This document shows positions 798 to 40,101 of a stretch of 64,000 bases of DNA, piece by piece. This DNA comes from Candidatus Hydrogenedens sp. (GTDB lineage Bacteria; Hydrogenedentota; Hydrogenedentia; Hydrogenedentales; Hydrogenedentaceae), in assembly GCA_035378955.1 (NCBI GenBank), contig DAOSUS010000004.1, positions 20,158 to 84,157 on the forward strand, in the 5' to 3' direction. How positions within the stretch are numbered: position 1 is the stretch's first letter; every line of letters begins with the position of its first letter. Both the position numbers and the translations under genes were made by a program. The notes below the pieces were generated by a model that saw only the letters and a program-made list of their open reading frames with translations, made no database searches and was not told the origin of the DNA.

Positions 798-2195
798 TTA
801 TTTTCGTTTTACGCGTGGACCTTGAGGGGTATCTTCAATAATCCAACCTTGTTCAAGTAATTGATTGCGAATGGTATCAGCCAGAGCAAAATTTTTATCT
901 CTCCGTGCCTGTTGTCTTTGCATAACTTTTTCTAATACTTCCGCAGGAACATCATCTTCCCTATCAGGGTTAAATAAACCTGTTATCTGATTTAATTTGT
1001 TTAAGAGATTAATAGCGTTTTGAGCCCCCTTCTCCCCCACTTCCCCGCTATCAATTTTTTTATTAACATCCCGTATAAAATCAAATACAATACCGAGAGC
1101 TGAGGAAATATTTAAATCATCATCTAAAGAATCTACAAACGATTTTTCACATTGTAAGCATTCCTCTACCAGTTCATCTCCATTTCCTTTAATTTCTTTG
1201 AGACGCAAACGGAAATCGCGTATTCGCCGAATACTACTGGAAGCGGATTCTACTGTTTCAAAAGTAAAGTTATTAGGTTGCCGATAATGAGTTGCGAGGA
1301 GGACCCAACGAATAGCCAGAGGTTCTAACTCTCTATCTAAAAGGTCTCTTAGTGTATAAAAATTTCCCAATGACTTTGACATTTTTTTACCATCAACAAC
1401 CAGATGGGCACAATGGAGCCAATATTTGACAAAGGGTTTTCCTGTGGCACATTCGGATTGGGCTATTTCATTTTCATGATGGGGGAACATATTATCAATA
1501 CCCCCACAATGAATATCAAAACTTTCTCCAAGATATTTCATGCTCATAGCCGAACATTCAATATGCCAGCCGGGTCTTCCCTTTCCGAGTTCGGTTTCCC
1601 AATAGACATTGCCATCTTCTTCATCCCATGCTTTCCAGAGGGCAAAATCACGGGCGTCTTCCATCGTATATTCATCGGTATCTACCCTACCGCTGGCACC
1701 GACTTTCAATTCTTCAATATTCATGTGGCTTAATTTACCGTATTCTGGGAATGTATTTAAACGGAAATAAATACTTCCTTCATGTTCGTATGTATGCCCT
1801 TTTTCTTTTAATTTTTTAATAATCTCCACCATTTCAGGGATATGCTCGGTAGCACGGGGATAAACATCCGCTCTTTCGATTTGGAGGGTATCCAGATCTT
1901 TAAAAAAGGCTTCTATATAAAAATCGGTAATTTCTTTGAGTGATTTTCCTGTTTCACGGCAGGTGCGTATTAATTTATCTTCTACATCTGTAATATTCAT
2001 TACATGAAATACATCATAACCACGGAATTTAAGATATCGTTTCAGTAAATCCTCAAAAATATATGCACGGAAATTTCCAATATGGGCGAAATTGTAAACT
2101 GTGGGCCCACAAGTATAAAGTTTTACTTTTGGTGGTTCTAAAGGGATAAACGGTTCTAATTTTCGGGTCATAGTGTTAAAAAAACATACGGCCAT
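798..2195 (-). CDS. cysS: Cysteine--tRNA ligase
   Basis: CGPTVY, HIGN and KMSKS motifs. The real start is probably the ATG at 2195 (MAVCFFNT), because the longer track ORF runs through tRNA-Leu. Confidence 0.97.
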   Translation of the reverse strand: MAVCFFNTMTRKLEPFIPLEPPKVKLYTCGPTVYNFAHIGNFRAYIFEDLLKRYLKFRGYDVFHVMNITDVEDKLIRTCRETGKSLKEITDFYIEAFFKDLDTLQIERADVYPRATEHIPEMVEIIKKLKEKGHTYEHEGSIYFRLNTFPEYGKLSHMNIEELKVGASGRVDTDEYTMEDARDFALWKAWDEEDGNVYWETELGKGRPGWHIECSAMSMKYLGESFDIHCGGIDNMFPHHENEIAQSECATGKPFVKYWLHCAHLVVDGKKMSKSLGNFYTLRDLLDRELEPLAIRWVLLATHYRQPNNFTFETVESASSSIRRIRDFRLRLKEIKGNGDELVEECLQCEKSFVDSLDDDLNISSALGIVFDFIRDVNKKIDSGEVGEKGAQNAINLLNKLNQITGLFNPDREDDVPAEVLEKVMQRQQARRDKNFALADTIRNQLLEQGWIIEDTPQGPRVKRK

Positions 2196-2226
2196 TTCAG
2201 TATATCCTCTTGGATGTAAGTTTTTA

Positions 2227-2254
2227 ATATTAGGCTGGGAAAACACTCTGTCAA
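2227..2254 (-). promoter_or_regulatory. Putative sigma70 promoter of cysS
   Basis: TTGACA-N16-TAATAT between tRNA-Leu and the cysS start. Confidence 0.45.
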
Positions 2255-2288
2255 TGATTATATAAAAAGAGAGGTAAAAATAAAAAAG

Positions 2289-2372
2289 TGGGCGAGGCGG
2301 GAATCGAACCCGCATGGCCTTACGGCCAACGGATTTTAAGTCCATCGTGTATTCCTATTCCACCACTCGCCC
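2289..2372 (-). tRNA. tRNA-Leu(TAA)
   Basis: Acceptor stem GGGCGAG/CTCGCCC, anticodon loop CT-TAA-AA, long variable arm, T-loop TTCGATT, discriminator A; CCA not encoded. Confidence 0.95.
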
Positions 2373-2385
2373 ACGACGATAGATA

Positions 2386-2460
2386 TGGAGGCGGCACCCG
2401 GATTCGAACCGGGGAATGGAAGCTTTGCAGGCTTCTGCCTTACCACTTGGCCATGCCGCC
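2386..2460 (-). tRNA. tRNA-Cys(GCA)
   Basis: GGCGGCATGGCCAAGTGGTAAGGCAGAAGCCTGCAAAGCTTCC...GGTTCGAATCCGGGTGCCGCCTCCA; U73 discriminator and encoded CCA. Confidence 0.97.
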
Positions 2461-7619: not shown

Positions 7620-8348
7620 ATGAAAGGTGTCGTTTTGGCTGGAGGTTTAGGAACACGATTATTACCCTTAACTCGTGTTACTAATAAACATTTATTGCCC
7701 GTCTATAATAAACCTATGATTTTTTATCCCATTCAAACTCTTGTAGACGCTGGTATTAAAGATATTATGATAGTAACAGGGGGAAATAACGCAGGGGATT
7801 TTCTCCGATTATTGGGGAATGGAGAAGATTTCGGCTTGCATCAACTTCATTATACTTATCAAAAAACAGAAGGAGGCATAGCTCATGCTCTCGCACTTAC
7901 AGAGCCATTTGTTGGTAAAGATAAAGTTGTAGTCATCCTTGGAGATAATTTTACTCAGAGCAGTATTAAAAAAGCCGTAGATGATTTTGAAAAGCAAGAT
8001 TCCGGTGCAAAGATTTTTTTGAAAGAGGTATCTAATCCTCAAGAATTTGGTGTTGCGGTAGTAGAAAATGGGAAAGTGAAGGAGATTATAGAGAAGCCTA
8101 AAGTTCCACCCACAAATTATGCAGTAATTGGAATATATATGTATGATTCGGATGTATTTAATATTTGTAAGACACTGAAACCCAGTGCGCGAGGTGAATT
8201 AGAGATAACCGATGTAAACAATGAATATATTCGACGAGGGACAATGACTTATGAATTTTTAGAAGGTTGGTGGGCAGACTGCGGAAGTTTTGAGGCATTG
8301 TTACGCTCAAATATACTTGTAGCGAAAGAACACGGTATACAAATTTAA
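7620..8348 (+). CDS. Sugar-phosphate nucleotidyltransferase (glucose-1-phosphate thymidylyltransferase-like, short form)
   Basis: LAGGLGTRL..TNKHLLPVYNKPMI, LGDN, EKP, SARGELEITD. Confidence 0.9.
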   Translation: MKGVVLAGGLGTRLLPLTRVTNKHLLPVYNKPMIFYPIQTLVDAGIKDIMIVTGGNNAGDFLRLLGNGEDFGLHQLHYTYQKTEGGIAHALALTEPFVGKDKVVVILGDNFTQSSIKKAVDDFEKQDSGAKIFLKEVSNPQEFGVAVVENGKVKEIIEKPKVPPTNYAVIGIYMYDSDVFNICKTLKPSARGELEITDVNNEYIRRGTMTYEFLEGWWADCGSFEALLRSNILVAKEHGIQI

Positions 8349-8361
8349 GGAGGATAATTTT

Positions 8362-8616
8362 ATGGGCACTGTTTATTTTTGCAAGTATTGTGGTAAACAA
8401 AGCACAAATGTCCAATCTTTAACCTCATCTCTATGTGTAAGGCATCCTAATGGACCTGGAAAAGGGAAACATGTCCCCTATGAAGGTGAAACAAAAAATG
8501 AATATATATGCAAATTCTGTGGAAGAAAATTTTCATCCATTCAAACGATGAGTGCTAATTTTTGCCTTCGCCACCCAAACGGTTCGGGAAAAGGTCGCCA
8601 TGAACCCATGCTATAA
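8362..8616 (+). CDS. Small Cys/His-rich protein with two 43-aa repeats, probably metal-binding
   Basis: Strong RBS (AAGGAGG) and two copies of C-x2-C-x14-C-x2-H-x8-H. Confidence 0.75.
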   Translation: MGTVYFCKYCGKQSTNVQSLTSSLCVRHPNGPGKGKHVPYEGETKNEYICKFCGRKFSSIQTMSANFCLRHPNGSGKGRHEPML

Positions 8617-8761
8617 TTCGTTTGATTTTTTACATCTCGTCATTAGAAAGTTTTATCTTTCATTTTCATAAATATCGAAAGGAAATTCTTCAAAACTTCG
8701 CACTGATTTTAAATTTTTCTATCATTTGTTATAGAATTTAAACACTTTTTTAAAGGTATTC

Positions 8762-8848
8762 GCCCGGGTGGCGGAAATGGCAGACGCGCCAGACTAAGGA
8801 TCTGGTCCCAGAAATGGGGTAGGAGTTCAATTCTCCTCCCGGGCACCA
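8762..8848 (+). tRNA. tRNA-Leu with anticodon AAG (A34)
   Basis: Acceptor GCCCGGG/CCCGGGC-A-CCA, anticodon stem CCAGA/TCTGG, loop CT-AAG-GA (AAG at 8796-8798), long variable arm, A73. Confidence 0.92.
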
Positions 8849-8971
8849 CTAAACATCCCTTATAATTCTCTCACTAAATTTATCTTGCACCTCTTATAAA
8901 TTGTTTTTCCAAATAATTAATCTCGTCAGGAAAATTTTATATATTCTTTGTAAAAATGTAGCCTTTATCTA

Positions 8972-10093
8972 TTAACCGTTTTGCTCTGTTTCTGAAGGAG
9001 AAAAATCTGAAGGAATAGTCTGATCACCAACATCCTGAGAACTTTGTGGAATATCTGCATGAGATTCTTCTGACATTAATTGCGAGGTGTCCATAACTAC
9101 TTTTTGTTCTTGAACTTCTTTTTGTTCTTGAACTTCTTCTGAATTTGGGGTGCTATCAGAAGCACCTTCCTCTAACATCGTTTGCGGGGAATACGCATCT
9201 ATATCGTGTTCTTTGACTTCCTCCGAAGACTGATTATTTTCCCCCTTCAATTTATCCTTGTGCTGGGCATAATATGCTTTTCCATATTCGGTAATAGCCC
9301 AGATACCCCTTTCGGTGTTCTTTTCGAGAATACCTCTATTCACAAGATCTATTTTTATCCATTTCAATGTATCCTTCCAGCGAGGGATATATTTATTATG
9401 AGTAACCGGGGATAAGTCATAACTATTAAAAATATGCTTCATCTTTTCATAAACCTGTTTTGTAATTACGGAATAAGGGGCAGAGCCATTGAATTCCATC
9501 AATGTATCTAAAAGAGGGTAAATATAAGCAGATTGTGGGGTCTTCAAACCTTTTTCCAATTTTCCTGTGAATGGAAGTCTTTTTCCCGAAGAGGATTTTT
9601 TCTCTGTTTTTTCTTTTGAGTTTTCAACCACAGGGGTTTCTTGATTTTCTACCACTTCCTGATGAAGAACAACTACTTCTTCCTCTTTATCCTTTTTTAG
9701 CGGTTCTTCACTTACAAGGGGTTTTTCTTCCTCAGTCCATTCACTATCAAAAACTGCTTTTTTCTTGCCCGAAACTTTTTTCTCTAAAGAAACGGTGGTA
9801 TGTCCTTGCTTACCTACCTTTTTTTCAAGCTTTTTAGCCGTTTTTTTTTCCGCAATCATTGATTTCTTTGCCAGAATTTGGGAAGAAACTTTTTTCTTTG
9901 CTTTAACTTCTTTTACTTTTTTAGTTCCTGCTTTGGTAGGTTTCTCTGATTCAGATATTTCGGTTTTCTTCTTCATCTGAATCATCATTTCTAATGCGGA
10001 TAGTAAATACTTAACCCGTTCACTGTCCTCCTCATCAACAGCCTTTACTATCTCATTCTTAATAAACTGTTTAAAATCATCATACTCTTTCAT
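8972..10093 (-). CDS. Mrr N-terminal (winged-helix) domain protein with charged low-complexity flanks and no visible nuclease domain
   Basis: TPQSAYIYPLL..PRWKDTLKW..LVNRGIL..ERGIWAITEYGK resembles Mrr_N. RBS AGGAG lies 8 nt before the ATG at 10093. Confidence 0.7.
   Translation of the reverse strand: MKEYDDFKQFIKNEIVKAVDEEDSERVKYLLSALEMMIQMKKKTEISESEKPTKAGTKKVKEVKAKKKVSSQILAKKSMIAEKKTAKKLEKKVGKQGHTTVSLEKKVSGKKKAVFDSEWTEEEKPLVSEEPLKKDKEEEVVVLHQEVVENQETPVVENSKEKTEKKSSSGKRLPFTGKLEKGLKTPQSAYIYPLLDTLMEFNGSAPYSVITKQVYEKMKHIFNSYDLSPVTHNKYIPRWKDTLKWIKIDLVNRGILEKNTERGIWAITEYGKAYYAQHKDKLKGENNQSSEEVKEHDIDAYSPQTMLEEGASDSTPNSEEVQEQKEVQEQKVVMDTSQLMSEESHADIPQSSQDVGDQTIPSDFSPSETEQNG
9101..9136. repeat. Perfect 18-bp tandem duplication, in frame (EVQEQK x2)
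   Basis: tttttgttcttgaacttc occurs twice in tandem. Confidence 0.9.
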
Positions 10094-10276
10094 TCCATAA
10101 TCTCCTATCAATTTACCGCTTTTGTTTTTCAGACCACTTTTTTGAACAATATATTAATTATTAACAGAATATTACAAGTAACGATTAACTATCTGATTAT
10201 ATTTTAATAATATCAAGTTGTTATAGTAAAATAAAATATTGCATACTGAAAATAAAAAAGGAATAAATGTAATTAT

Positions 10277-10735
10277 ATGAAATTACAAACAACACGATTT
10301 GGTGAAATAGAAATTGATGAAAATCAAATTCTTTTATTTGTAAAACCTATTTTAGGATTTCAGAATTACCAGAAATTTATTTTATTACCGGGACCTAAAG
10401 ATAGCCCGCTATGGTGGCTGCAATCCGTAGAGGATGGTTCATTGGCTTTTCTATTGTTAGAACCTTTGCAGGTTTTACAGGGCTATCAGGTTCCGTTCAC
10501 TCCTCAGGACTTACATGAATTACAAGCTATTTCTCCTCAGGAGATTTCTATATATACATTACTTGTGGTTCCGGAAGACCCAACAAAAATCCGAACGAAT
10601 TTAAGAGCCCCCATTGTAATAAATACAAAAACAAGGTTAGCAAAGCAAATGGTATTGGACAGAACGGATTACCCTGTCCAATGGTTCCTTGCGCAACCCC
10701 AAAATGAACAACCAACCGATAGACAGGAGGTCTAA
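10277..10735 (+). CDS. fliW: Flagellar assembly factor FliW
   Basis: [27 protein letters not shown]; directly upstream of csrA. Confidence 0.95.
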
Positions 10736-10736
10736 T

Positions 10737-10988
10737 ATGCTTGTGCTCACGCGTAAGGAAGATGAAAGCATAATGATTGGCGATAATATCGAAATCAAAG
10801 TGCTTGAATTACGGGAAAATCAGGTCAAGATAGGGATAGAGGCACCTCGTTCTATCCCTGTTCATCGAAAAGAGGTCTATCTATCAATCAAAGCGGAAAA
10901 TGAAGAGGCGGCACGGGTAGAACCCCCGAAAGAAATTCCTGTTCTTCAACCCAACAAAGGAGACCCCCAAGATGGAAATACTCATTGA
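10737..10988 (+). CDS. csrA: Carbon storage regulator CsrA
   Basis: [41 protein letters not shown]; RBS AGGAGG before the ATG at 10737. Confidence 0.97.
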
Positions 10989-11607
10989 TGGTATAAAAGG
11001 ATTTCAGTTTTCGAATTCGCCGAACACCCTTCAATCTGCTTTGAATGAAATCATGAATTTTCTTAGCACCCAACAATTGGCAATGGTGAAGTTAAGAGTT
11101 AATGAACAGGAAGTATATCCGGGAAAGTCATTAGAATCTATTCAGGATATGGATGTATCTAACATACGGACATTAGAAATCAGTACCTACCCCATACCTC
11201 AGCTGGTGGAAGAAGGTATTGCAGACCTTAAATTGTATTCACCCGAATTAAGTGGGTTATGTCGTGAAATTGCTCAAGTATTTCAGAGTGAAAATCCAGA
11301 TGAAGGGTTTGACCCGTTCCAGAAGCTTTCCGCAATATGGAGCGAAATAAAAAAAAGAGAGGCACTTATAATTAATTTGTTAAGTTCCCATGTAACGGAA
11401 GAAAACCCTACTATAAAAATGATAAAAGAGCATCATGAAGATTTAAATCGGGTCCTTGAAGATGCTTATAAGTCCCTCGAAAATAACGACTGTATCGGTC
11501 TTGGGGACTTACTAGAATATGAATTAGCACCCCTTGCAGAAAAAGAACCCGAAATTGTTAGTCAATTAAAGCAATTGGTATTACAATATATTTCCAAATC
11601 AACCTAA
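10972..11607 (+). CDS. Hypothetical helical protein coupled to csrA
   Basis: 211 aa, overlapping the csrA end by 17 nt; C-terminal [11 protein letters not shown] segment. Confidence 0.7.
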
Positions 11608-11648
11608 TATGTTTTATTCCAATGTGATAAAATAAATAGAAAGGAAAC

Positions 11649-14600
11649 ATGGGACAAATTAAAATCTTGACTTTTAATTTTCACGAGCCTTACATGTGTT
11701 TAATGGCAAAAACGGGGTTTGAAATGGATTTAGGATTGTATAGTGAGGGGTTGCTTGCTCGAAAATGGAAAGCGGAATTCCGACCTAAACCTGAAAATTT
11801 ACATGAAGTTCCCCAAAATGAGTGGAGAGAACGACTTTTCAAAGGGTATTACGATATTGTAATTGCCCATAACGAAACGAATGCCTGGGATATTCGTGAA
11901 GCACCCTGCCCTAAAATTCTCGTATGTCATAATAGAAAAACCTACCTAAAAACAACACTGCCGAAAAATGACATTTCTGCTATTGAAAACTTTGAGAAGG
12001 TTTTAGGTGTTTTATCTGAATTGTTTACTTTTGTATTTATTTCTCCCTCGAAAAGAGATGATTATGGTTATCCGGGGTATGTGGTGTTGCCTGGTATTGA
12101 TATAGAAGAGTATGGGGGTTATCAGGGAAGCGAGGAAGTGATTTTACGGGTAGGTAATTATATGCAGGTGCGAAACTGGATGTTTGATTTTCCATTACAG
12201 GAAACTCTCTGCCAGGGATTACCTAATATTATTGTTGGAGAAAATCCGGGTGTTGAAAACTCAAAACCTTCCGCAAACTTTGAAGAATTGCTATCTGCAT
12301 ATCGTTTCAATCGCTGTTTGCTTCATATAACCCGTCAGGAATTTGAAGATGGATACAATCTTTCTACATTAGAAGCGATGGCTTGTGGTATGCCGGTGGT
12401 TGCATTAAGCAATCGCACTTCGCCAATTACAAATGAGGTAGATGGTTTTACATCGTTTGACCCTGCCCAATTGCGAAAATACCTTGAACTTCTTTTAGAA
12501 AATCCAGATTTGGCGAAAAAAATAGGAGCCCAAGGGAGAGAGACTATTAAAAAGAAATTTCCTATATCTCAATTTGTTGAGAATTGGCAAAAGATAATTT
12601 TAAAACAAAGTGGGAAAGAAACGACCTCTGTTTCAATCACAAAGCCATCAACAGAAACAAAACATTATCACATTTTATTAGATTATGTTACTTCCCCACA
12701 TACAACGGCTCGATATTTCGAATTCGCATTTGAAAAAGACCATGATGTTGTAACATCGGGTTTTCGATGCCCTGAAGAATTGCTTTATAAGTGGGGATTT
12801 CAAAATCCTCCTCCATATCCTCCTCAGAGAATCTCAACCTCGTTTGATGAAAAACGCATAGAGAATCTCCTCTCGGGCATTCCATCAGGATATATCTTCG
12901 ATTTCTATATCTATGTTGATTCGGGACTTAAAACAATTGACCCATTAATAGATTTGCTCAATATCCCTCGAGTGGCGTATTTTATTGATACCCACCTCGA
13001 CATACAAACACGGTTAGAAATGGCAAAACATTTTGATATTGTGTTTCTGGCTCAACAAAGTCATGTAAAAATATTCAAGGAACAGGGTATCCGTCATGTT
13101 TTTTGGTTACCTCTTGCTTGCTGTCCCGAATTATATCCTCAAAAGGAACTACCCCGTTATATTGATGTCTCTTTTGTAGGTAGTTTATCACCTGATGAAG
13201 GGGATAAAAGAAGAAGGTTGTTAATGAAAGTGGCTGAAAAATTCCCAAATCATTACATTGGTAAAAAATGGCCTCTTGAAATGGGAGAAGTCTATTCAAG
13301 AAGTAAAATTGTTGTAAATTCTGCCATTAATTATGACTTAAATATGCGGGTATTTGAAGGTATGGCAGGTGGGGCTTTACTCATTACAGATTCTGCGGAT
13401 AGTATTCTGGAATTGTTTGAAGATGGGAAAGACCTTGTTATTTACAAAAATGAAAAGGATTTAATTGAAAAAATTCATTATTATCTGGAACATGAAGAGG
13501 AAAGATACGAAATTGCTATGCAGGGGCAACAAAAGGTTTTAGGGAAACACACTTATCACCATAGATGCCAACAAATTCTTAACAAAGTTGAGGAAATTTT
13601 TAAAATTGATACAACAAAAGCAAACCGATTAGAAGTAAAACCTATAAACTATTACTCTTCTGAAAGAAGGGAGGTATTAAATTATATTCCCCAAGGAACA
13701 AAAAAGGTTCTTGATGTAGGTTGTGCTACGGGGAATTTCGGTTTAGCAATGAAACGGGAATTGGGTGTTGAAGAAGTGGTTGGGATAGAAATTGTCCCCG
13801 AAATTGCTGAAATTGCAAAGAAGGTTTTGGATACCGTATTTGTTGGAAATATCCAAACAGATAGTTTTCCTTTTGATGATAACTATTTTGATGTAATCAC
13901 CTGTTGCGATGTATTAGAACATACAGAACACCCTGAAAAGGTATTGCGAAATCTAATCCGATACCTGAAACCTTATGGCTATGTTATCATCAGCATTCCC
14001 AATGTTCAATATTGGGGTGTCATTTTTGGTCTATCTATTGGAAGATGGGATTATCGTGATTCGGGTATTCAGGATATAACTCATTTAAAATTCTATACGA
14101 AGAATACATTACAAGAATTAATTCGTAAAGCAGGGCTTCTGATTAATACTATGGAACCTCTTTCTATATCCCCTGAAAATATGATACCCCGTAAAGAAAA
14201 TGGAAACCTGCAAATAGGTAAGATTTGTATTGATAAAGTTTCTGATGAAGAGTATAGGTTATTACGCACTTTTCAGTATATTGTAATTGCACAGAAAATC
14301 CCTTCGGATATAAACGAGGTTAATGAACAAGTTCGCAAATTATTAGAATCAGGGGAAATCGGTTTATTATTTGAACTTGCGAGAACAGAAAGCGATTTAC
14401 CACTATGGAAACGATACAGTATCGAAGGGAAAGCGTATGCACACACCGGCAATCTTGTAAAAGCCCAGGAGTGTTATTTAAAAGCCATAGAAATGGACAA
14501 AAATAATGAATTATATATTGAATACGGGCTACTTATGCTGGCAATGAACCAAGTTCAAACAGCATTAGAGATATTCAATAAGGTGTTTCAGGAAGAACCG

Positions 14601-14954
14601 AAAAACATTCGTCTGCATCTTGCCATGGGGCAGGGATATTTACAAATGGGGAATATTCAAAAATCTTATGAACATCTAAAATATGCTTTCTCAAATAGTT
14701 ATGATTATCCGAGCGTTCTTGATTTGTACATTTATGTATGCGAGCAATTAGGACATATAGAGAATGTGGAAGAAACAATTAAAGCATTCATAGATTTTTA
14801 TCCCGGAGATGTTTCGCTGATATTGAAATATTCAACATTCCTGTCCAGACATGGTAGAGCACGAGAAGCAATTAATGTATTAAAGGAATATATAGAAATC
14901 TTTGGGACCAGTGATGAGTTGGAAAAGGAAGTAAAACGATTGGAATCGATATAA
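11649..14954 (+). CDS. Multidomain glycosyltransferase: GT-B (GT4-like) + CgeB-like GT + class I SAM methyltransferase + TPR
   Basis: EDGYNLSTLEAMACGMPVV; NMRVFEGMAGGALLITD..HTYHHR; VLDVGCATG..DVLEH..VIISIPN; C-terminal TPR-like helices. Confidence 0.85.
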   Translation: MGQIKILTFNFHEPYMCLMAKTGFEMDLGLYSEGLLARKWKAEFRPKPENLHEVPQNEWRERLFKGYYDIVIAHNETNAWDIREAPCPKILVCHNRKTYLKTTLPKNDISAIENFEKVLGVLSELFTFVFISPSKRDDYGYPGYVVLPGIDIEEYGGYQGSEEVILRVGNYMQVRNWMFDFPLQETLCQGLPNIIVGENPGVENSKPSANFEELLSAYRFNRCLLHITRQEFEDGYNLSTLEAMACGMPVVALSNRTSPITNEVDGFTSFDPAQLRKYLELLLENPDLAKKIGAQGRETIKKKFPISQFVENWQKIILKQSGKETTSVSITKPSTETKHYHILLDYVTSPHTTARYFEFAFEKDHDVVTSGFRCPEELLYKWGFQNPPPYPPQRISTSFDEKRIENLLSGIPSGYIFDFYIYVDSGLKTIDPLIDLLNIPRVAYFIDTHLDIQTRLEMAKHFDIVFLAQQSHVKIFKEQGIRHVFWLPLACCPELYPQKELPRYIDVSFVGSLSPDEGDKRRRLLMKVAEKFPNHYIGKKWPLEMGEVYSRSKIVVNSAINYDLNMRVFEGMAGGALLITDSADSILELFEDGKDLVIYKNEKDLIEKIHYYLEHEEERYEIAMQGQQKVLGKHTYHHRCQQILNKVEEIFKIDTTKANRLEVKPINYYSSERREVLNYIPQGTKKVLDVGCATGNFGLAMKRELGVEEVVGIEIVPEIAEIAKKVLDTVFVGNIQTDSFPFDDNYFDVITCCDVLEHTEHPEKVLRNLIRYLKPYGYVIISIPNVQYWGVIFGLSIGRWDYRDSGIQDITHLKFYTKNTLQELIRKAGLLINTMEPLSISPENMIPRKENGNLQIGKICIDKVSDEEYRLLRTFQYIVIAQKIPSDINEVNEQVRKLLESGEIGLLFELARTESDLPLWKRYSIEGKAYAHTGNLVKAQECYLKAIEMDKNNELYIEYGLLMLAMNQVQTALEIFNKVFQEEPKNIRLHLAMGQGYLQMGNIQKSYEHLKYAFSNSYDYPSVLDLYIYVCEQLGHIENVEETIKAFIDFYPGDVSLILKYSTFLSRHGRAREAINVLKEYIEIFGTSDELEKEVKRLESI

Positions 14955-14979
14955 AAGACCGAAGTAAGAGGCATGTCTT

Positions 14980-16764
14980 ATGAGTATATTTAAATCTATT
15001 GCGGAATGGCGAAAAGAAATTCCTGAAAATTACAGAAGTGAACGGGTTGAACTTATCGAGAAACGCAAGGGTATAAAAACGATTCGAGTTGGAGGGCTTC
15101 TTTATCACAGTCAATATAACCCCACAGAAGAAGCAAAAAAATTAATAGAAGCATCCTCTCTGGACAAAAAACGACCCGTCGTTGCTATCGGTTTGGGATT
15201 GGGGTATCATATACAGGAACTTATACAAAAAGAATACAAAGTTATTGTTATTGAACCTGATAAAGATATTGCATTTACCGCCATTCAAAATAACCTATTG
15301 CCTGATGATTTATTACTCGCTATTCCTGATACATTGGATTATCTTTTTAATGATTCTTTTTTTAAGGACTATCTCGATAAAATACCGCAACCTTTTTTTC
15401 ATCCTGTTGTCAGCCGTATCTATTCTGAATTTTGCGAGACATTAATCAAACGAATATCTCGGGAATGCTTCGACCGACAGCATTTCAATATTGCGATTGT
15501 AGGTCCTATGTATGGAGGCTCCCTTCCTATCACACGATATTTAAATCGGGCTTTTCGAAAATTAGGACATCAAACACTTCTTGTAGATACAGAAATAGCG
15601 TGGAATGTCTTTAATTCTATAGGCAAGACTTTGAAAACTCCCAAAATGGCTCACTCACTCGAAGATTTTTACACCAAGTTTCTTTCGGAATGGTGTCTGG
15701 CTCAGGTAATAGAATTCCAGCCAGAGATTTGTATTGTTATGGCACAGGCTCCAGTTACAAATTTATTCGTTTCGAGGTTAAATGAGCGAGGAATTGTAAC
15801 TGCATTCTGGTTTGTAGAAAATTGGCGACATCTTAGTTATTGGAAGGAAATAGCTCCCTTTTATAATTTATTTTTTCATATTCAACCTGGTGAGTTTGAT
15901 AACAAACTGGATGCTATCGGTTGCCATTGTCATTTTCCCATATTTACAGCCTGCGACCCGGAACTCCATGCCCCTGTTTCTTTAAGCCCTGATGAGGAGA
16001 AGATATATAAGTGCGACTTATCTTTCGCAGGGGCAGGATATTATAACCGTATCAAAATGTTGAAGGGACTTACGGATTACAATTTAAAAATCTGGGGTGT
16101 AAACTGGAATGAATTGGAACTACTTCCTCATGTAGTAGAAGGAAATAAAGGATTTGATACAGAAGAATATATGAAAATTGTAGCCGGTTCAAAAATTAAT
16201 CTAAATCTTCATTCCAGTGTTATTCATGAAGGAGTTGACCCCGATGCTGATGCTATTAATCCACGAGTATTCGAAATCGCCTCTGCAGGCGGATTTCAAC
16301 TTTGTGACCCCTGTAAAGGATTAGAGGATTTGTTTGATACCCAAAATGAAATCCCTACCTACACCGACCTGAAAACACTTCGGGATAAAATAGATTACTT
16401 TTTGAAACATGAGGAAGAAAGACAACAGATAGCCCAAAATGCTCAAAAATGAGCCTTGAAGGAACATACTTACGAACACCGTGCTAATCAAATGTTGGAT
16501 TATATTAAAGAATTTTTTGGTGGGAAAATCATGAGGAAGGGAATGCGTATACAGAGGACTGTCGGAGAAATTATTGAACGATATGGGAAAAATAGCCCTC
16601 TGGGGCAATGGCTTGCAACATTACCTCAAGATATACCCTTTTTACAGGAAGAAATTAATAAACATTTACCTATATTGGATGATAATACTCCATTTCCTGT
16701 TCAAGTATTTTGGTATCTGAATGAAGTTCGTGTTTTTGGTGAAAATTTATTGAGGGAGAAATAA
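14980..16764 (+). pseudogene. Maf-like N-terminus + CgeB-type glycosyltransferase interrupted by one in-frame TGA (16450-16452)
   Basis: LYHSQYNPTEEA..GLGLGYH N-terminus and NPRVFEIASAGGFQL. The frame reads AQK*ALKEHTYEHR straight into the 16456..16764 ORF. Confidence 0.8.
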
Positions 16765-16766
16765 CG

Positions 16767-18467
16767 GTGAAAATACTCATTTTGCAGACGGCAAGAATTG
16801 GAGATACGATACAGACCACTCCTCTATTTCGTCAAATTCGAACAAAATATCCGCATGCCCATATTACTGTGATGATACGAGCGATGAGTGAAGAGGTTAT
16901 TAAAGCCAATCCTGATGTAAACGATTATATTATTTACCATGAAGACCCTATTTTTTCAGATATGATTGCTCGAGATTCTGACCGATATATGAATGCCTAT
17001 AAAGAAGTGGAAAAATTAATCCTTGATTTGCGGCAACGAAACTTTGACATTGCTTACAACATAACACATAGCACCTCATCTGCTTTGCTTTTAAAATTGG
17101 CTCAAATTCCTAAGGTTATCGGGGCTCATTTGTCTGAAGATTGGCAATTTACATTAAGGGGACCCTGGACTGTTTATTTTTTCACCAGTGTTCTTTCACG
17201 GGATTACAATGATTTAAACCTATGCGATATATTTAAACTCTATGAATCTATCCCGGAACCTGTAAAAGAACTTGTTTTTGAGGTGAATTCCAATGCTATG
17301 GAATTTACAGACCATCTTTTTGCAGAATATCACATCGAACCGGAAGATTTTGTTGTATGTATGCAATTGGGTGCCAGTGAAGCCAACAAACGCTGGCCTG
17401 CAGAATATTTTGCTCAATTAGGGAAAAAATTGCATGAAAAATACAAGGCACGGATATTTCTCGTAGGGGTGCCATCAGAGGCAGAATTGGGTCAGAAATT
17501 TCAAAGGGAAGTTCCGGGTCTTGCAATTCCACTTTTTGGGAAAACGACCATACCTCAGTTGGCAGGGCTATTAAAACGCTCCCATTTATTAGTAACTAAT
17601 GATACAGGGACAATGCACCTTGCATCCGCTGTGAAATGTCCTGTAATGCTTGTATCCGTTGGTTATGTGCACTTTCGTGAAACAGGTCCTTATGGCAGGG
17701 GAAATTGTGCTATCGAATTAAGGGAACGCTCTTTTAAAATGGATATTTCTTCAAAATCTTCAGAGGTTCATCCTTTAGATAGGATACAACCCGAACAGGT
17801 CCTTAAAGCAATCGAATGGCTGTTTTCCATGCGTGAGAAAAAACAATTAGTCCAACATGAACTTACACCGGATATGGATAATGTCAATGTTCACATCTCG
17901 GAATTTGCCCCTGATGGTTGTTTACAATTCTATCCTGTTATTCGGCGGGAAATTGATGAAAAAGATTTTCTGCGTTTTGCCTATCGGTTAATGTGGCTGG
18001 AACATCTTAATGTAACCCCACATAAACAAACCGAAATTGAAAATCTCCACAAATTGTTTCAGTATTATATTGCTCCAGATACAAAAACTCTTACTATGTG
18101 GAATAAGGAATTTCGGGGTTCTTTCGAGGAATTGGCAGGAAAGTATAAGCAGGGAATTCATATTACAGAACAGTTAAAAAGCACTATAACCGATGGCAAA
18201 ATTATGAGAGCACGCGAACAAGTCAAATTATTATCAGAAATTGATGAACAAATACGAATATATGGAGAACTCAATTCCTACTTAAAACCTATTACCCTTG
18301 TTACTAAATTCGAACGCGATAATCTGGAAGGGAGTAATCCTCTGGAACTGGCAAAACAGACATTGAACATCTATCGAGGAGGCTATGAGCGTTCAACATT
18401 GATGGCAAAGAAAGTCAAAAAATGTTGTGATTACCTTCAAAACAACGAAAATAGCCTTTTAGAATAA
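16767..18467 (+). CDS. Glycosyltransferase family 9 (heptosyltransferase-like) with a long C-terminal helical extension
   Basis: QTARIGDTIQTTP, QLGASEANKRWP, LVTNDTGTMHLASAV; GTG start. Confidence 0.88.
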   Translation: MKILILQTARIGDTIQTTPLFRQIRTKYPHAHITVMIRAMSEEVIKANPDVNDYIIYHEDPIFSDMIARDSDRYMNAYKEVEKLILDLRQRNFDIAYNITHSTSSALLLKLAQIPKVIGAHLSEDWQFTLRGPWTVYFFTSVLSRDYNDLNLCDIFKLYESIPEPVKELVFEVNSNAMEFTDHLFAEYHIEPEDFVVCMQLGASEANKRWPAEYFAQLGKKLHEKYKARIFLVGVPSEAELGQKFQREVPGLAIPLFGKTTIPQLAGLLKRSHLLVTNDTGTMHLASAVKCPVMLVSVGYVHFRETGPYGRGNCAIELRERSFKMDISSKSSEVHPLDRIQPEQVLKAIEWLFSMREKKQLVQHELTPDMDNVNVHISEFAPDGCLQFYPVIRREIDEKDFLRFAYRLMWLEHLNVTPHKQTEIENLHKLFQYYIAPDTKTLTMWNKEFRGSFEELAGKYKQGIHITEQLKSTITDGKIMRAREQVKLLSEIDEQIRIYGELNSYLKPITLVTKFERDNLEGSNPLELAKQTLNIYRGGYERSTLMAKKVKKCCDYLQNNENSLLE

Positions 18468-38061: not shown

Positions 38062-40101
38062 ATGGCACAATTTGACCCGAGAAAAGTTCGTAATGTTGGT
38101 TTTGCAGGACATGGTGGTGTTGGGAAAACAATGTTAATTGAACGAATATTGTATTCCGCAGGACTAACCAGTCGTTTAGGAAGTATTGAAGATGGAAACA
38201 CTGTTTGTGATTATCTGGAAGATGAAAAAGACCGCAAGTGTTCCATCGCTATGAAATTAGTTCATTTAGATTGGAAGGGTACACGGATACATATTGTTGA
38301 CCATCCGGGTTATACAGACTTCATCGGAGAATTATGCGCATCCTCTGCCGTGCTTGATGCGTTAGTTATTCTGGTGGACGCAACTACTGGTGTTCAGGTA
38401 GGAACGGATATAGCATGGAAATATGCGGAAAAGAGACAAATTCCCCGTGCTATTTTTGTTAATAAATTAGACCGCGAACATACTAACTTCAACGAAGTAG
38501 TTGAAAAAATTCAGAATGCCTATGGCAAACACTGTGTCCCAATAGTAATGCCCATAGGTCAATCCGCAAATTTGAAAGGTGTTGTTAATATTGTCACGGG
38601 AGATGCCTCTGTTTTAGGTGCAGAAGCAGAAAAGGCAAAGGAAGCCATCGTAGAGGTAGTCGCAGAAACAGATGAAGCACTTATGGAAAAATATCTGGAA
38701 ACATTTGAACTATCTCAGGAAGAATTTGATAAAGGGCTCCAGAAAGGAATTAGCACAGGGAAAATTATACCTATTATCGCAGGTAGTGTTACCCAAGGAA
38801 TTGGTCATGAAGAATTGCTTGACATTATAGCCAATTCATTCCCCAACCCGTTAGAACGGACTGTTGTGGCAAAGAATTCTGCGGGCGAAGATGTCGTTAT
38901 AACACCTGACCCTGATGGTCCCTTTGTGGCTCAGGTATTCCGTTCTATGGTTGACCCATTTGTAGGACATCTTACTTATTTCCGTGTGTTTTCCGGCACT
39001 TTACGGTCGGATTCTGATTTTTACAATAGTTCCACACAAACCAAAGAGCGTTCTGGTAAAATTGTAATGCTGATAGGAAAGGAACAAAAACAGGTAGCGG
39101 AAGTAGGTCCTGGCGATATTGCAGCAATGACAAAGTTAAAGAATACCCATTTTGGAGATACTTTGACTGTCCTGGGAAATGAGATTAAGCTTCCTACAAT
39201 TGAATTACCACGCTCTATGGTTAAATTAGCCATTTCTCCAAAATCAAGAAACGATGAAGACCGTATCGGTGAAGCTCTAAATCGCATGGCAGAAGAAGAC
39301 CCTACTTTCAGCCATTACAGAGATAATGAAACAGGAGAACATGTTATACGCGGGATGGGTGATTTACAGATTGAAATTCTGTTAAATCGAATGAAAAGGA
39401 AATATAATGTAGAAGCAGAAACCCGTCTTCCCAAAGTCGCCTACAAGGAAACCATTCGTGGTAAAGCAGAAGTTCAGGGGAAATATAAGAAACAGACCGG
39501 AGGTCATGGTCAATACGGTGATGTGCACCTTCGACTTTCTCCCAATGAACGCGGAGGAGGATATAAATTTGTAGATAGTATTGTAGGCGGTGTTGTCCCC
39601 AAACAATACATTCCTGCTGTTGATAAAGGAGCACAGGAAGCACTGGCAAAAGGTGTTATTTCAGGACACCCTGTTGTTGACATCGTTGTTGATTTATTCT
39701 TTGGTTCCTATCACACAGTGGACTCATCCGAACTCGCTTTCAAAATTGCCGCTTCGCTTGCTATACAAAAGGGCGTTCGTGAAGCAAATCCATGTATTTT
39801 AGAACCCATTATGGAAATTACAGTAACCGTCCCGGAAGATTTCATGGGTGATATTACTGGGGATTTAAATAGTCGCCGCGGAAGAATCTTAGGGATGGAA
39901 CCTGTCGGTGGTGGTTTACAACAAATACGGGCATTGGTTCCTGAATCAGAAATCCTCCGATATGCAACTGATTTAAGAAGTATGACAGGTGGTAGAGGAA
40001 CCTTCGATTTGAAATTTAGCCATTATGACGAAGTGCCCGAATTTATTGCAAAAGACATTATTGCTGCTTATGAAAAATCCCGTGAAGCAGGAAATGAATA
40101 A
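38062..40101 (+). CDS. Elongation factor G-like protein (EF-G2 type)
   Basis: GHGGVGKT, DHPGY, NKLD, YKKQTGGHGQYG, VDSSELAFK, LEPIM..DLNSRRG. Confidence 0.92.
   Translation: MAQFDPRKVRNVGFAGHGGVGKTMLIERILYSAGLTSRLGSIEDGNTVCDYLEDEKDRKCSIAMKLVHLDWKGTRIHIVDHPGYTDFIGELCASSAVLDALVILVDATTGVQVGTDIAWKYAEKRQIPRAIFVNKLDREHTNFNEVVEKIQNAYGKHCVPIVMPIGQSANLKGVVNIVTGDASVLGAEAEKAKEAIVEVVAETDEALMEKYLETFELSQEEFDKGLQKGISTGKIIPIIAGSVTQGIGHEELLDIIANSFPNPLERTVVAKNSAGEDVVITPDPDGPFVAQVFRSMVDPFVGHLTYFRVFSGTLRSDSDFYNSSTQTKERSGKIVMLIGKEQKQVAEVGPGDIAAMTKLKNTHFGDTLTVLGNEIKLPTIELPRSMVKLAISPKSRNDEDRIGEALNRMAEEDPTFSHYRDNETGEHVIRGMGDLQIEILLNRMKRKYNVEAETRLPKVAYKETIRGKAEVQGKYKKQTGGHGQYGDVHLRLSPNERGGGYKFVDSIVGGVVPKQYIPAVDKGAQEALAKGVISGHPVVDIVVDLFFGSYHTVDSSELAFKIAASLAIQKGVREANPCILEPIMEITVTVPEDFMGDITGDLNSRRGRILGMEPVGGGLQQIRALVPESEILRYATDLRSMTGGRGTFDLKFSHYDEVPEFIAKDIIAAYEKSREAGNE

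Follow-up and report, generated by a model that had tools for sequence, protein, structure and literature searches.

A conserved tRNA-Leu with anticodon AAG in Candidatus Hydrogenedentota, a probable case of inosine-34 decoding

In nearly all bacteria tRNA-Arg(ICG) works through inosine at the first anticodon position (I34), and the deaminase TadA acts on an encoded A34 in the context of U33 and G36. To our knowledge, experimental proof of bacterial I34 outside tRNA-Arg exists only in Oenococcus and Streptococcus. A 2021 paper described I34 on tRNA-Leu as rare in bacteria, and a survey of GtRNAdb (PNAS Nexus 2026) placed almost all bacterial tRNA-Leu(AAG) genes in the Bacilli (PMC13249217). 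All bacterial tRNA-Leu(AAG) species examined experimentally, those of O. oeni, S. pyogenes and S. mutans, are fully I34 (PMC13249217, PMC11472039, PMC8072771). [quoted passage not shown] Two other A34 tRNAs of O. oeni, for threonine and serine, stay unmodified (PMC8072771); an encoded A34 therefore does not guarantee inosine. When AAG is placed unmodified on an orthogonal tRNA, CUU is read far better than CUC (PMC11066159). Among the top-ranked matches of a full-text literature search, none linked Hydrogenedentes with inosine, TadA or anticodons.

Here we describe a tRNA-Leu(AAG) gene in a stretch of 64,000 nucleotides, the whole of which is called the window below. The window has a G+C content of 35–38%. 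Its EF-G gene (38062-40101) finds its closest match, at 88% identity, on a 1.43-Mb NCBI contig; the named matches, at 67–71% identity, are MAGs of Candidatus Hydrogenedentes or Hydrogenedentota bacterium, with one exception (a Nitrospiraceae MAG). Homologues of a nucleotidyltransferase and of FliW encoded near the tRNA likewise point to Hydrogenedentota, and a FliW match of 94% identity is labelled Candidatus Hydrogenedens sp., a genus that belongs to the phylum Candidatus Hydrogenedentota of the FCB group. Judged by these best named matches, the host is an uncultured relative of Candidatus Hydrogenedens within the Hydrogenedentota and not a Firmicute, which bears out the initial annotation in placing this A34 tRNA-Leu outside the usual Firmicutes distribution.

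The gene and its surroundings

The features of the window that matter here are the following.
2288..2372, minus strand: tRNA-Leu(UAA), the sole other leucine isoacceptor in the window (ARAGORN, Rfam)
2386-2460, minus strand: tRNA-Cys(GCA) (ARAGORN)
7620..8348, plus strand: RmlA-like sugar-phosphate nucleotidyltransferase, the upstream neighbour and synteny anchor (NCBIfam/Pfam; homologue series)
8362..8616, plus strand: 84-aa zinc-ribbon-like protein between the transferase and the tRNA (open reading frame; weak TIGR02605 match)
8708..8740, plus strand: promoter-like element (consensus scan; alignment of 10 low-GC lineages)
8762..8848, plus strand: tRNA-Leu(AAG), class II, with long variable arm, A73 and encoded CCA (ARAGORN; RF00005; orthologues)
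8789..8805, plus strand: anticodon stem-loop CCAGA-CUAAGGA-UCUGG (direct reading; 7-nt loop invariant in 14/14 Hydrogenedentota copies)
8796..8798, plus strand: anticodon AAG (ARAGORN, tRNA position 35; A34 is 8796 and G37 is 8799)
8972..10111, minus strand: Mrr_N-like K/E-rich protein between the tRNA and fliW (weak domain match)
10277-10735, plus strand: fliW (Pfam PF02623)
10737-10988, plus strand: csrA (Pfam PF02599)

The window contains three tRNA genes according to ARAGORN: Leu(UAA) and Cys(GCA) on the minus strand, and Leu(AAG) on the plus strand. Read directly, the last of these is GCCCGGG-UG-GCGG-AAAUGGCAGA-CGC-G-CCAGA-CUAAGGA-UCUGG-U-CCCA-GAAA-UGGG-GU-AGGAG-UUCAAUU-CUCCU-CCCGGGC-A-CCA. 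All its stems are perfect: the 7-bp acceptor stem (GCCCGGG/CCCGGGC), the 3-bp D stem, the anticodon stem (CCAGA/UCUGG), the 4-bp stem of the variable arm (CCCA/UGGG) and the T stem (AGGAG/CUCCU). The variable-arm stem, the 3-bp D stem, G18G19 and the discriminator A73 (not G73, as in tRNA-Ser) are marks of a class II tRNA-Leu, and the encoded CCA occupies 8846-8848. The minimum free energy fold is the cloverleaf, except that the anticodon arm slips in register. On 300 bp containing the gene, the Rfam tRNA model RF00005 scored 52.6 bits (gathering score 29, E=9e-11). The gene was not reported when the whole window was scanned at the gathering threshold with default filters; given the score of the local scan, this miss is a filter loss. 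The speed filters of Rfam can drop genuine tRNAs in AT-rich windows. The initial annotation, which had described a complete class II tRNA-Leu with A73, CCA, perfect stems and the loop CUAAGGA, was accurate in every detail.

The nucleotidyltransferase is found as exactly the same protein on 17 public contigs; among those fetched, four reach the tRNA gene and have it with AAG. Over the gene and 200 bp of its surroundings, these four independent assemblies (ENA ERZ27247220, ERZ27247235 and ERZ27247228, and JGI 3300009503) are the same, except for one T in a T-run. Position 8796, the base at which the initial annotation had advised inspection, is A in all four; because they agree, A34 is not a read or assembly error, and sequencing error is excluded.

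A consensus scan upstream of the gene places a −35 element TTTAAA at 8708-8713 and, after an 18-nt spacer, a −10 element TAGAAT at 8732-8737. When ten low-GC lineages are aligned, the −10 falls within a block GTTATA(A/G)AATT that is invariant in all ten (window-row columns 89-99), between flanks that have almost completely diverged. The block lies about 25 nt upstream of the tRNA, with a −35-like motif 18 nt further upstream; its −35 counterpart in the group of L129, L130 and L134 (loci compared with the window are cited by L numbers) is TTGATT. Just after the tRNA, a G+C-rich hairpin followed by a T run, resembling an intrinsic terminator, is present in L127, L150 and L142; no terminator-like hairpin was found after the gene in the window. 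The window gene looks expressed, with a putative promoter of its own.

The surroundings offer several further observations. The 84-aa open reading frame contains a duplicated unit of about 35 residues, CK(Y/F)CG...C(V/L)RHPNG(P/S)GKG(K/R)H, with a weak match to FmdB-type zinc ribbons; it is called also in L130, not in L127 or L129. The Mrr_N-like gene is variable in length (301–379 aa) and found only in the Hydrogenedens-genus clade; it is absent between tRNA and fliW in L129, L130, L167, L168 and L170. It looks like an insertion beside a tRNA gene, the deeper lineages having the tRNA abutting fliW. The csrA gene starts at 10737 with ATG CTT GTG CTC, just as the initial annotation had given it when pointing to CTT and CTC codons in use. 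Away from this site, the tRNA-Cys(GCA)/tRNA-Leu(UAA) cluster lies directly upstream of cysS (window 798-2460, minus strand; NCBIfam) and is kept in relatives.

Conservation and ancestry

The block consisting of dprA, the nucleotidyltransferase, the tRNA, fliW-csrA-DUF8042 and glycosyltransferase genes is syntenic in L127 (an ENA contig of 216 kb), L129 (NCBI GCA_017880035.1) and L130 (GCA_026415215.1). Protein identity to the window within the block is 77–95% for L127 and about 50–90%, mostly 60–80%, for L129 and L130. A tRNA-Leu(AAG) gene occupies the syntenic site in L127/L128, L129 and L130. In L131-L133, with nucleotidyltransferases at most 83% identical, synteny is lost and no tRNA lies within ±10 kb. 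A scan of JGI metagenomes with the window anticodon arm (any base at position 34) plus the T-arm returned 33 loci. Those with the GCCCGGG acceptor stem and 35–38% GC have A34 in 7/7 cases, and the remaining 26 have T34 and different tRNA bodies; no version of the window tRNA body with T, G or C at position 34 was found in the metagenome collection scanned. In L148 the gene has been relocated beside tRNA-Cys and tRNA-Leu(UAA), its anticodon still being AAG. As a detail of that locus, it has joined the tRNA-Cys(GCA)/tRNA-Leu(UAA) cluster (L148, 146-605).

Deeper lineages were reached with FliW as the anchor in place of the nucleotidyltransferase. In three high-GC Hydrogenedentota with FliW identities of 52–61% to the window, namely L167 (55% GC), L168 (62% GC) and L170 (GCA_024449895.1, 60% GC), tRNA-Leu(AAG) is located directly upstream of fliW. 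In L171 (GCA_029556545.1, Candidatus Hydrogenedentes, 65% GC, FliW 50% identical) it lies 10 kb from fliW, and in L169 (GCA_029551155.1) no tRNA is present within 10 kb of fliW. The fliW-csrA pair downstream of the tRNA is kept in L127-L130, L167, L168 and L170. The AAG carriers thus comprise about ten low-GC lineages and four deep high-GC lineages (55–65%), mostly beside fliW-csrA. The anticodon is AAG in every relative where the gene was found, that is, in 14 lineages spanning 35–65% GC and about 50–100% FliW identity. The initial annotation had asked whether AAG is conserved, to which the answer is yes in all these relatives; the scenario it had named against itself, that relatives all have TAG or GAG, is contradicted by every one of them. 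An adaptation to low GC had been considered, as the first carriers have 35–38% GC and the non-syntenic relatives about 60%; the carriers with 55–65% GC rule it out.

Selection on the tRNA is evident from the pattern of substitutions. The 14 copies reduce to eight distinct sequences, and the standard cloverleaf was mapped onto their alignment. Of the pair cells, 99.5% are Watson-Crick or G-U, and compensatory double changes occur in 9 of the 24 stem pairs, including one from C-G to U-A in the D stem, three each in the anticodon and T stems and two in the variable stem. These pairing values were not reached by any of 500 shuffles, and slid registers fall to 28–54% paired. The seven loop bases CUAAGGA (alignment columns 34–40) are invariant in all eight sequences. 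Covariation together with an invariant loop implies that the function of the tRNA has long been maintained and that the anticodon loop itself is under selection. The proposal of a genuine A34 tRNA other than tRNA-Arg(ACG) is sustained by the relatives and the covariation: the gene is real and conserved under selection. In much of the phylum Hydrogenedentota, tRNA-Leu(AAG) is thus a trait that is old and under selection.

The same loci differ in other respects. The genes of the window group and of the high-GC lineages include the CCA end; those of L129 (L129:11137-11139), L130, L134 and L147 do not. Gain or loss of CCA must therefore have occurred repeatedly, and the presence of a CCA-adding enzyme is required. 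The operon at 7620-18467 of the window, compared with L167, L168, L170 and L171, is conserved across 35% to 65% GC within one phylum. Its order is nucleotidyltransferase, tRNA, fliW-csrA-DUF8042, a fused glycosyltransferase/methyltransferase/TPR protein (about 1100 aa) and two more glycosyltransferases. Seen over this comparison, the Hydrogenedens-like clade has undergone a large shift toward low GC. An Acido-Lenti-1 small RNA (RF01687; 52.6 bits against a threshold of 37) is located at L170:2779-2824 on the plus strand, upstream of the nucleotidyltransferase of that high-GC Hydrogenedentota MAG.

As to ancestry, contigs of species genomes were scanned with the pattern GCGCCAGACTNAGGATCTGGT, which gave at least 120 loci in many phyla; the window species is not among the matches listed. 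The 21-nt arm GCGCCAGACU-N-AGGAUCUGGU is present in over 120 species genomes drawn from many phyla, and among the 120 matches listed N is T in 116 and A in 4, with no G or C. The remark in the initial annotation that the anticodon context resembles UAG isoacceptors therefore holds for the window lineage, 116 of the 120 exact arm matches listed being TAG. In the deeper Hydrogenedentota the anticodon stems of the AAG tRNAs are different (CUAGA, CAUGG and CAAGA), and derivation of AAG from a UAG tRNA by T34A was for that reason withdrawn as a conclusion. The ancestor of the gene may have been either a UAG or a GAG tRNA; in all 171 loci ARAGORN found no Leu(GAG) or Leu(CAG) gene whose body could be compared.

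The four A-bearing matches are themselves tRNA-Leu(AAG) genes with the window anticodon arm outside the Firmicutes (L063:4947-5034, L106:2159-2243, L109:7282-7366 and L116:644-730). Their hosts, among the 120 genomes listed, are MAGs of an uncultured Micavibrio sp., of Polyangiales, of 'Deltaproteobacteria' and of Planctomycetota. One flanking gene is common to L106 and L109 (59% amino-acid identity), and the two may form another AAG-bearing clade.

Decoding by inosine or by plain adenosine

The dichotomy drawn in the initial annotation, that A34 here means either a TadA with a wider range of substrates or a tRNA that decodes with its A34 unmodified, holds as stated. We think it probable that the tRNA-Leu(AAG) of the window is a functional decoder of CUY, possibly also of CUA, with A34 most likely deaminated to I34. 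The gene would be transcribed from its own promoter. LeuRS does not recognise the anticodon, so the tRNA would insert leucine; charging by LeuRS is suggested by A73 and by the body shared with 116 ordinary tRNA-Leu(UAG) species. A G37 that follows G36 is a substrate of TrmD, and G37 (8799) is accordingly expected to carry m1G37. The TadA of the host would deaminate A34 (8796) to give tRNA-Leu(IAG), which would read CUU and CUC well and CUA weakly. Because E. coli TadA does not edit tRNA-Leu(AAG), a change in specificity must be assumed; the host enzyme would be relaxed at positions 35 and 37. The trait would have been acquired independently of the Lactobacillales.

The loop CUAAGGA fits YUAMGRA exactly, a fit that speaks of compatibility only. 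Codon usage adds a second line of evidence. In the high-GC carriers CUC makes up 27–39% of leucine codons and CUU 7–15%, CUC being two to four times as frequent as CUU. In the window lineage CUU accounts for 21% of leucine codons (50% of the CUN box) and CUC for 5% (12% of the box), so the dominance of U-ending codons, true in the low-GC window, is reversed in the high-GC carriers. As I34 reads C well and CUC is heavily used there, retention of an A34 tRNA in the high-GC carriers is sensible if A34 becomes I34. Taken together, the codon usage of these carriers and the YUAMGRA fit favour I34 over plain A34.

If A34 stayed unmodified, the tRNA would be essentially a dedicated Watson-Crick reader of CUU, weak on CUC, and GAG, UAG and CAG isoacceptors would read the other CUN codons. 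We hold this to be unlikely, though likelier than the other rivals. The predominance of CUU over CUC in the low-GC window is compatible with it, as are the poor reading of CUC by unmodified AAG on the orthogonal tRNA, the unmodified A34 tRNAs for threonine and serine in O. oeni, and the rejection of tRNA-Leu(AAG) by TadA of the E. coli type. Decoding of CUC could be explained without I34 by a tRNA-Leu(GAG) in the same genome. However, a CUU-only reader would have little to do in the high-GC carriers, every bacterial tRNA-Leu(AAG) examined experimentally has proved to be I34, and the loop matches the relaxed TadA motif at all seven positions. In about 300 kb of fetched Hydrogenedentota DNA, a fraction of the genomes, Leu(GAG), Leu(UAG) and Leu(CAG) were not found, the tRNAs there being Leu(AAG), Leu(UAA) and Cys only. 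A search for the HAE...PCxxC motif of TadA gave no deaminase reading frame in the window or in these 300 kb. Coming from parts of genomes, both negatives leave the balance between the readings as it was. CGA makes up 24% of arginine codons in the window; I:A decoding is therefore evidently tolerated, and the use of CUA and CGA in the window does not discriminate between the hypotheses.

The other codon box that depends on I34 shows a shift of its own. In the L129/L130 lineage (GC about 37%) AGA and AGG together make up about 75% of arginine codons and CGN is rare; in the window lineage, at the same GC, CGN amounts to about 66%.

Two further explanations were considered. One is that the sequence is in error, or that a recent T34A or G34A mutation has struck a redundant, unexpressed copy. 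The window arm is that of an ordinary tRNA-Leu(UAG), as in the 116 TAG matches listed, so a single T-to-A change would yield it. But four independent assemblies have the identical gene, 14 lineages from 35% to 65% GC carry AAG without exception, the stems have undergone compensatory changes around an invariant loop, the promoter-like motif is conserved among low-GC lineages, and the metagenome scan returned the tRNA body with A34 only. This explanation is effectively refuted by the conservation data. The other, that A34 carries a different modification or that the tRNA has a non-decoding role, whether regulatory or as a substrate in peptidoglycan or aminoacyl transfer, appears very improbable to us. 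The conserved position beside fliW-csrA could hint at co-regulation; against this, the architecture is that of a canonical elongator tRNA-Leu with nothing unusual outside position 34, and in L148 and L171 the gene sits elsewhere, so that linkage to fliW is not obligatory.

With I34 as the preferred reading, a more speculative extension can be formulated, which we regard as rather doubtful. The Hydrogenedentota may have rebuilt the leucine CUN box on the arginine model, with a single tRNA-Leu(IAG), which in the Hydrogenedens genus has a UAG-type arm, replacing both the G34 and U34 isoacceptors and tRNA-Leu(CAG) reading CUG. This would be achieved through a TadA that has independently evolved dual or broader specificity, possibly with a broader mRNA editome.

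Comparison with known A34 systems

tRNA-Leu(AAG) as such is known, and rare; what is new here is its depth (much of a candidate phylum), its independence of GC content and, in one clade, its UAG-like arm. The Hydrogenedentota are probably, as far as the genes allow one to judge, the second bacterial lineage, after the lactic-acid bacteria, to convert the first base of this anticodon to inosine. The occurrence of a second, unrelated and much older tRNA-Leu(AAG) amounts to an independent natural replicate. It raises the questions of how TadA widens its substrate range, a first step toward the eukaryotic ADAT, of whether I34 reshapes leucine codon usage, and of whether a relaxed TadA widens mRNA editing. 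For the annotation of MAGs, it follows that A34 leucine tRNAs from uncultured phyla are genuine and ought not to be discarded as errors; the four further cases from Micavibrio, Polyangiales, 'Deltaproteobacteria' and Planctomycetota MAGs among the 120 genomes listed bear on the same point.

The closest known system is the tRNA-Leu(AAG)/(IAG) of the Lactobacillales (Streptococcus, Lactobacillus and Oenococcus oeni), which is served by a relaxed TadA (PMC13249217, PMC11472039). Both have an encoded A34 in a class II tRNA for the CUN box and a loop compatible with YUAMGRA, and both are conserved single-copy traits of a lineage and not sporadic mutants. The hosts differ, being Bacillota there and Hydrogenedentota of the FCB group here, and a host in another phylum argues for an independent origin. 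The gene described here falls outside the Lactobacillales (class Bacilli) lineage of Leu(AAG), and would work like that tRNA in a Hydrogenedentota host. All carriers in the Lactobacillales are AT-rich, whereas those in the Hydrogenedentota range from 35% to 65% GC, so that the trait and AT-richness, confounded in the Lactobacillales, come apart here. In the Lactobacillales AAG replaces GAG; the Hydrogenedens genus has exactly the anticodon arm of UAG-type isoacceptors. I34, the change in TadA and the absence of GAG have been demonstrated for the Lactobacillales, whereas the tRNA-Leu(AAG) of the Hydrogenedentota is known from its genes.

With tRNA-Arg(ACG)/(ICG) the gene shares an A34 that lies in a loop of seven nucleotides, C-U-A-N-G-R-A, closed by a 5-bp stem, and it would share the hydrolytic deamination proposed here and the reading of U, C and A at the third codon position. 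The two differ in amino acid and in the class II body of tRNA-Leu(AAG). They differ also at two positions of the loop, C35 and A37 in tRNA-Arg(ACG) against A35 and G37 in tRNA-Leu(AAG), which E. coli TadA does not tolerate (PMC11472039). The unmodified A34 tRNAs, such as tRNA-Thr(AGU) of Mycoplasma and the tRNA-Thr and tRNA-Ser of O. oeni, also have an encoded A34 outside the arginine box, but they belong to reduced genomes or are recent additions, and lack inosine. The tRNA-Leu(AAG) of the Hydrogenedentota, in contrast, has the G36 and U33 that TadA needs, is ancient, and persists in genomes where C-ending codons abound.

The eukaryotic tRNA-Leu(IAG) made by ADAT2/ADAT3 agrees in anticodon and in the logic of decoding, with I34 in place of G34 for a four-codon box. 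If a CUN box of the arginine type were true of the Hydrogenedentota, bacteria would have a counterpart, deep-branching and independent of GC, to the replacement of G34 by I34 in eukaryotes. The enzymes would nevertheless be different: ADAT2/ADAT3 is a heterodimer that recognises the whole tRNA, whereas in bacteria a homodimeric TadA reading the anticodon loop is expected.
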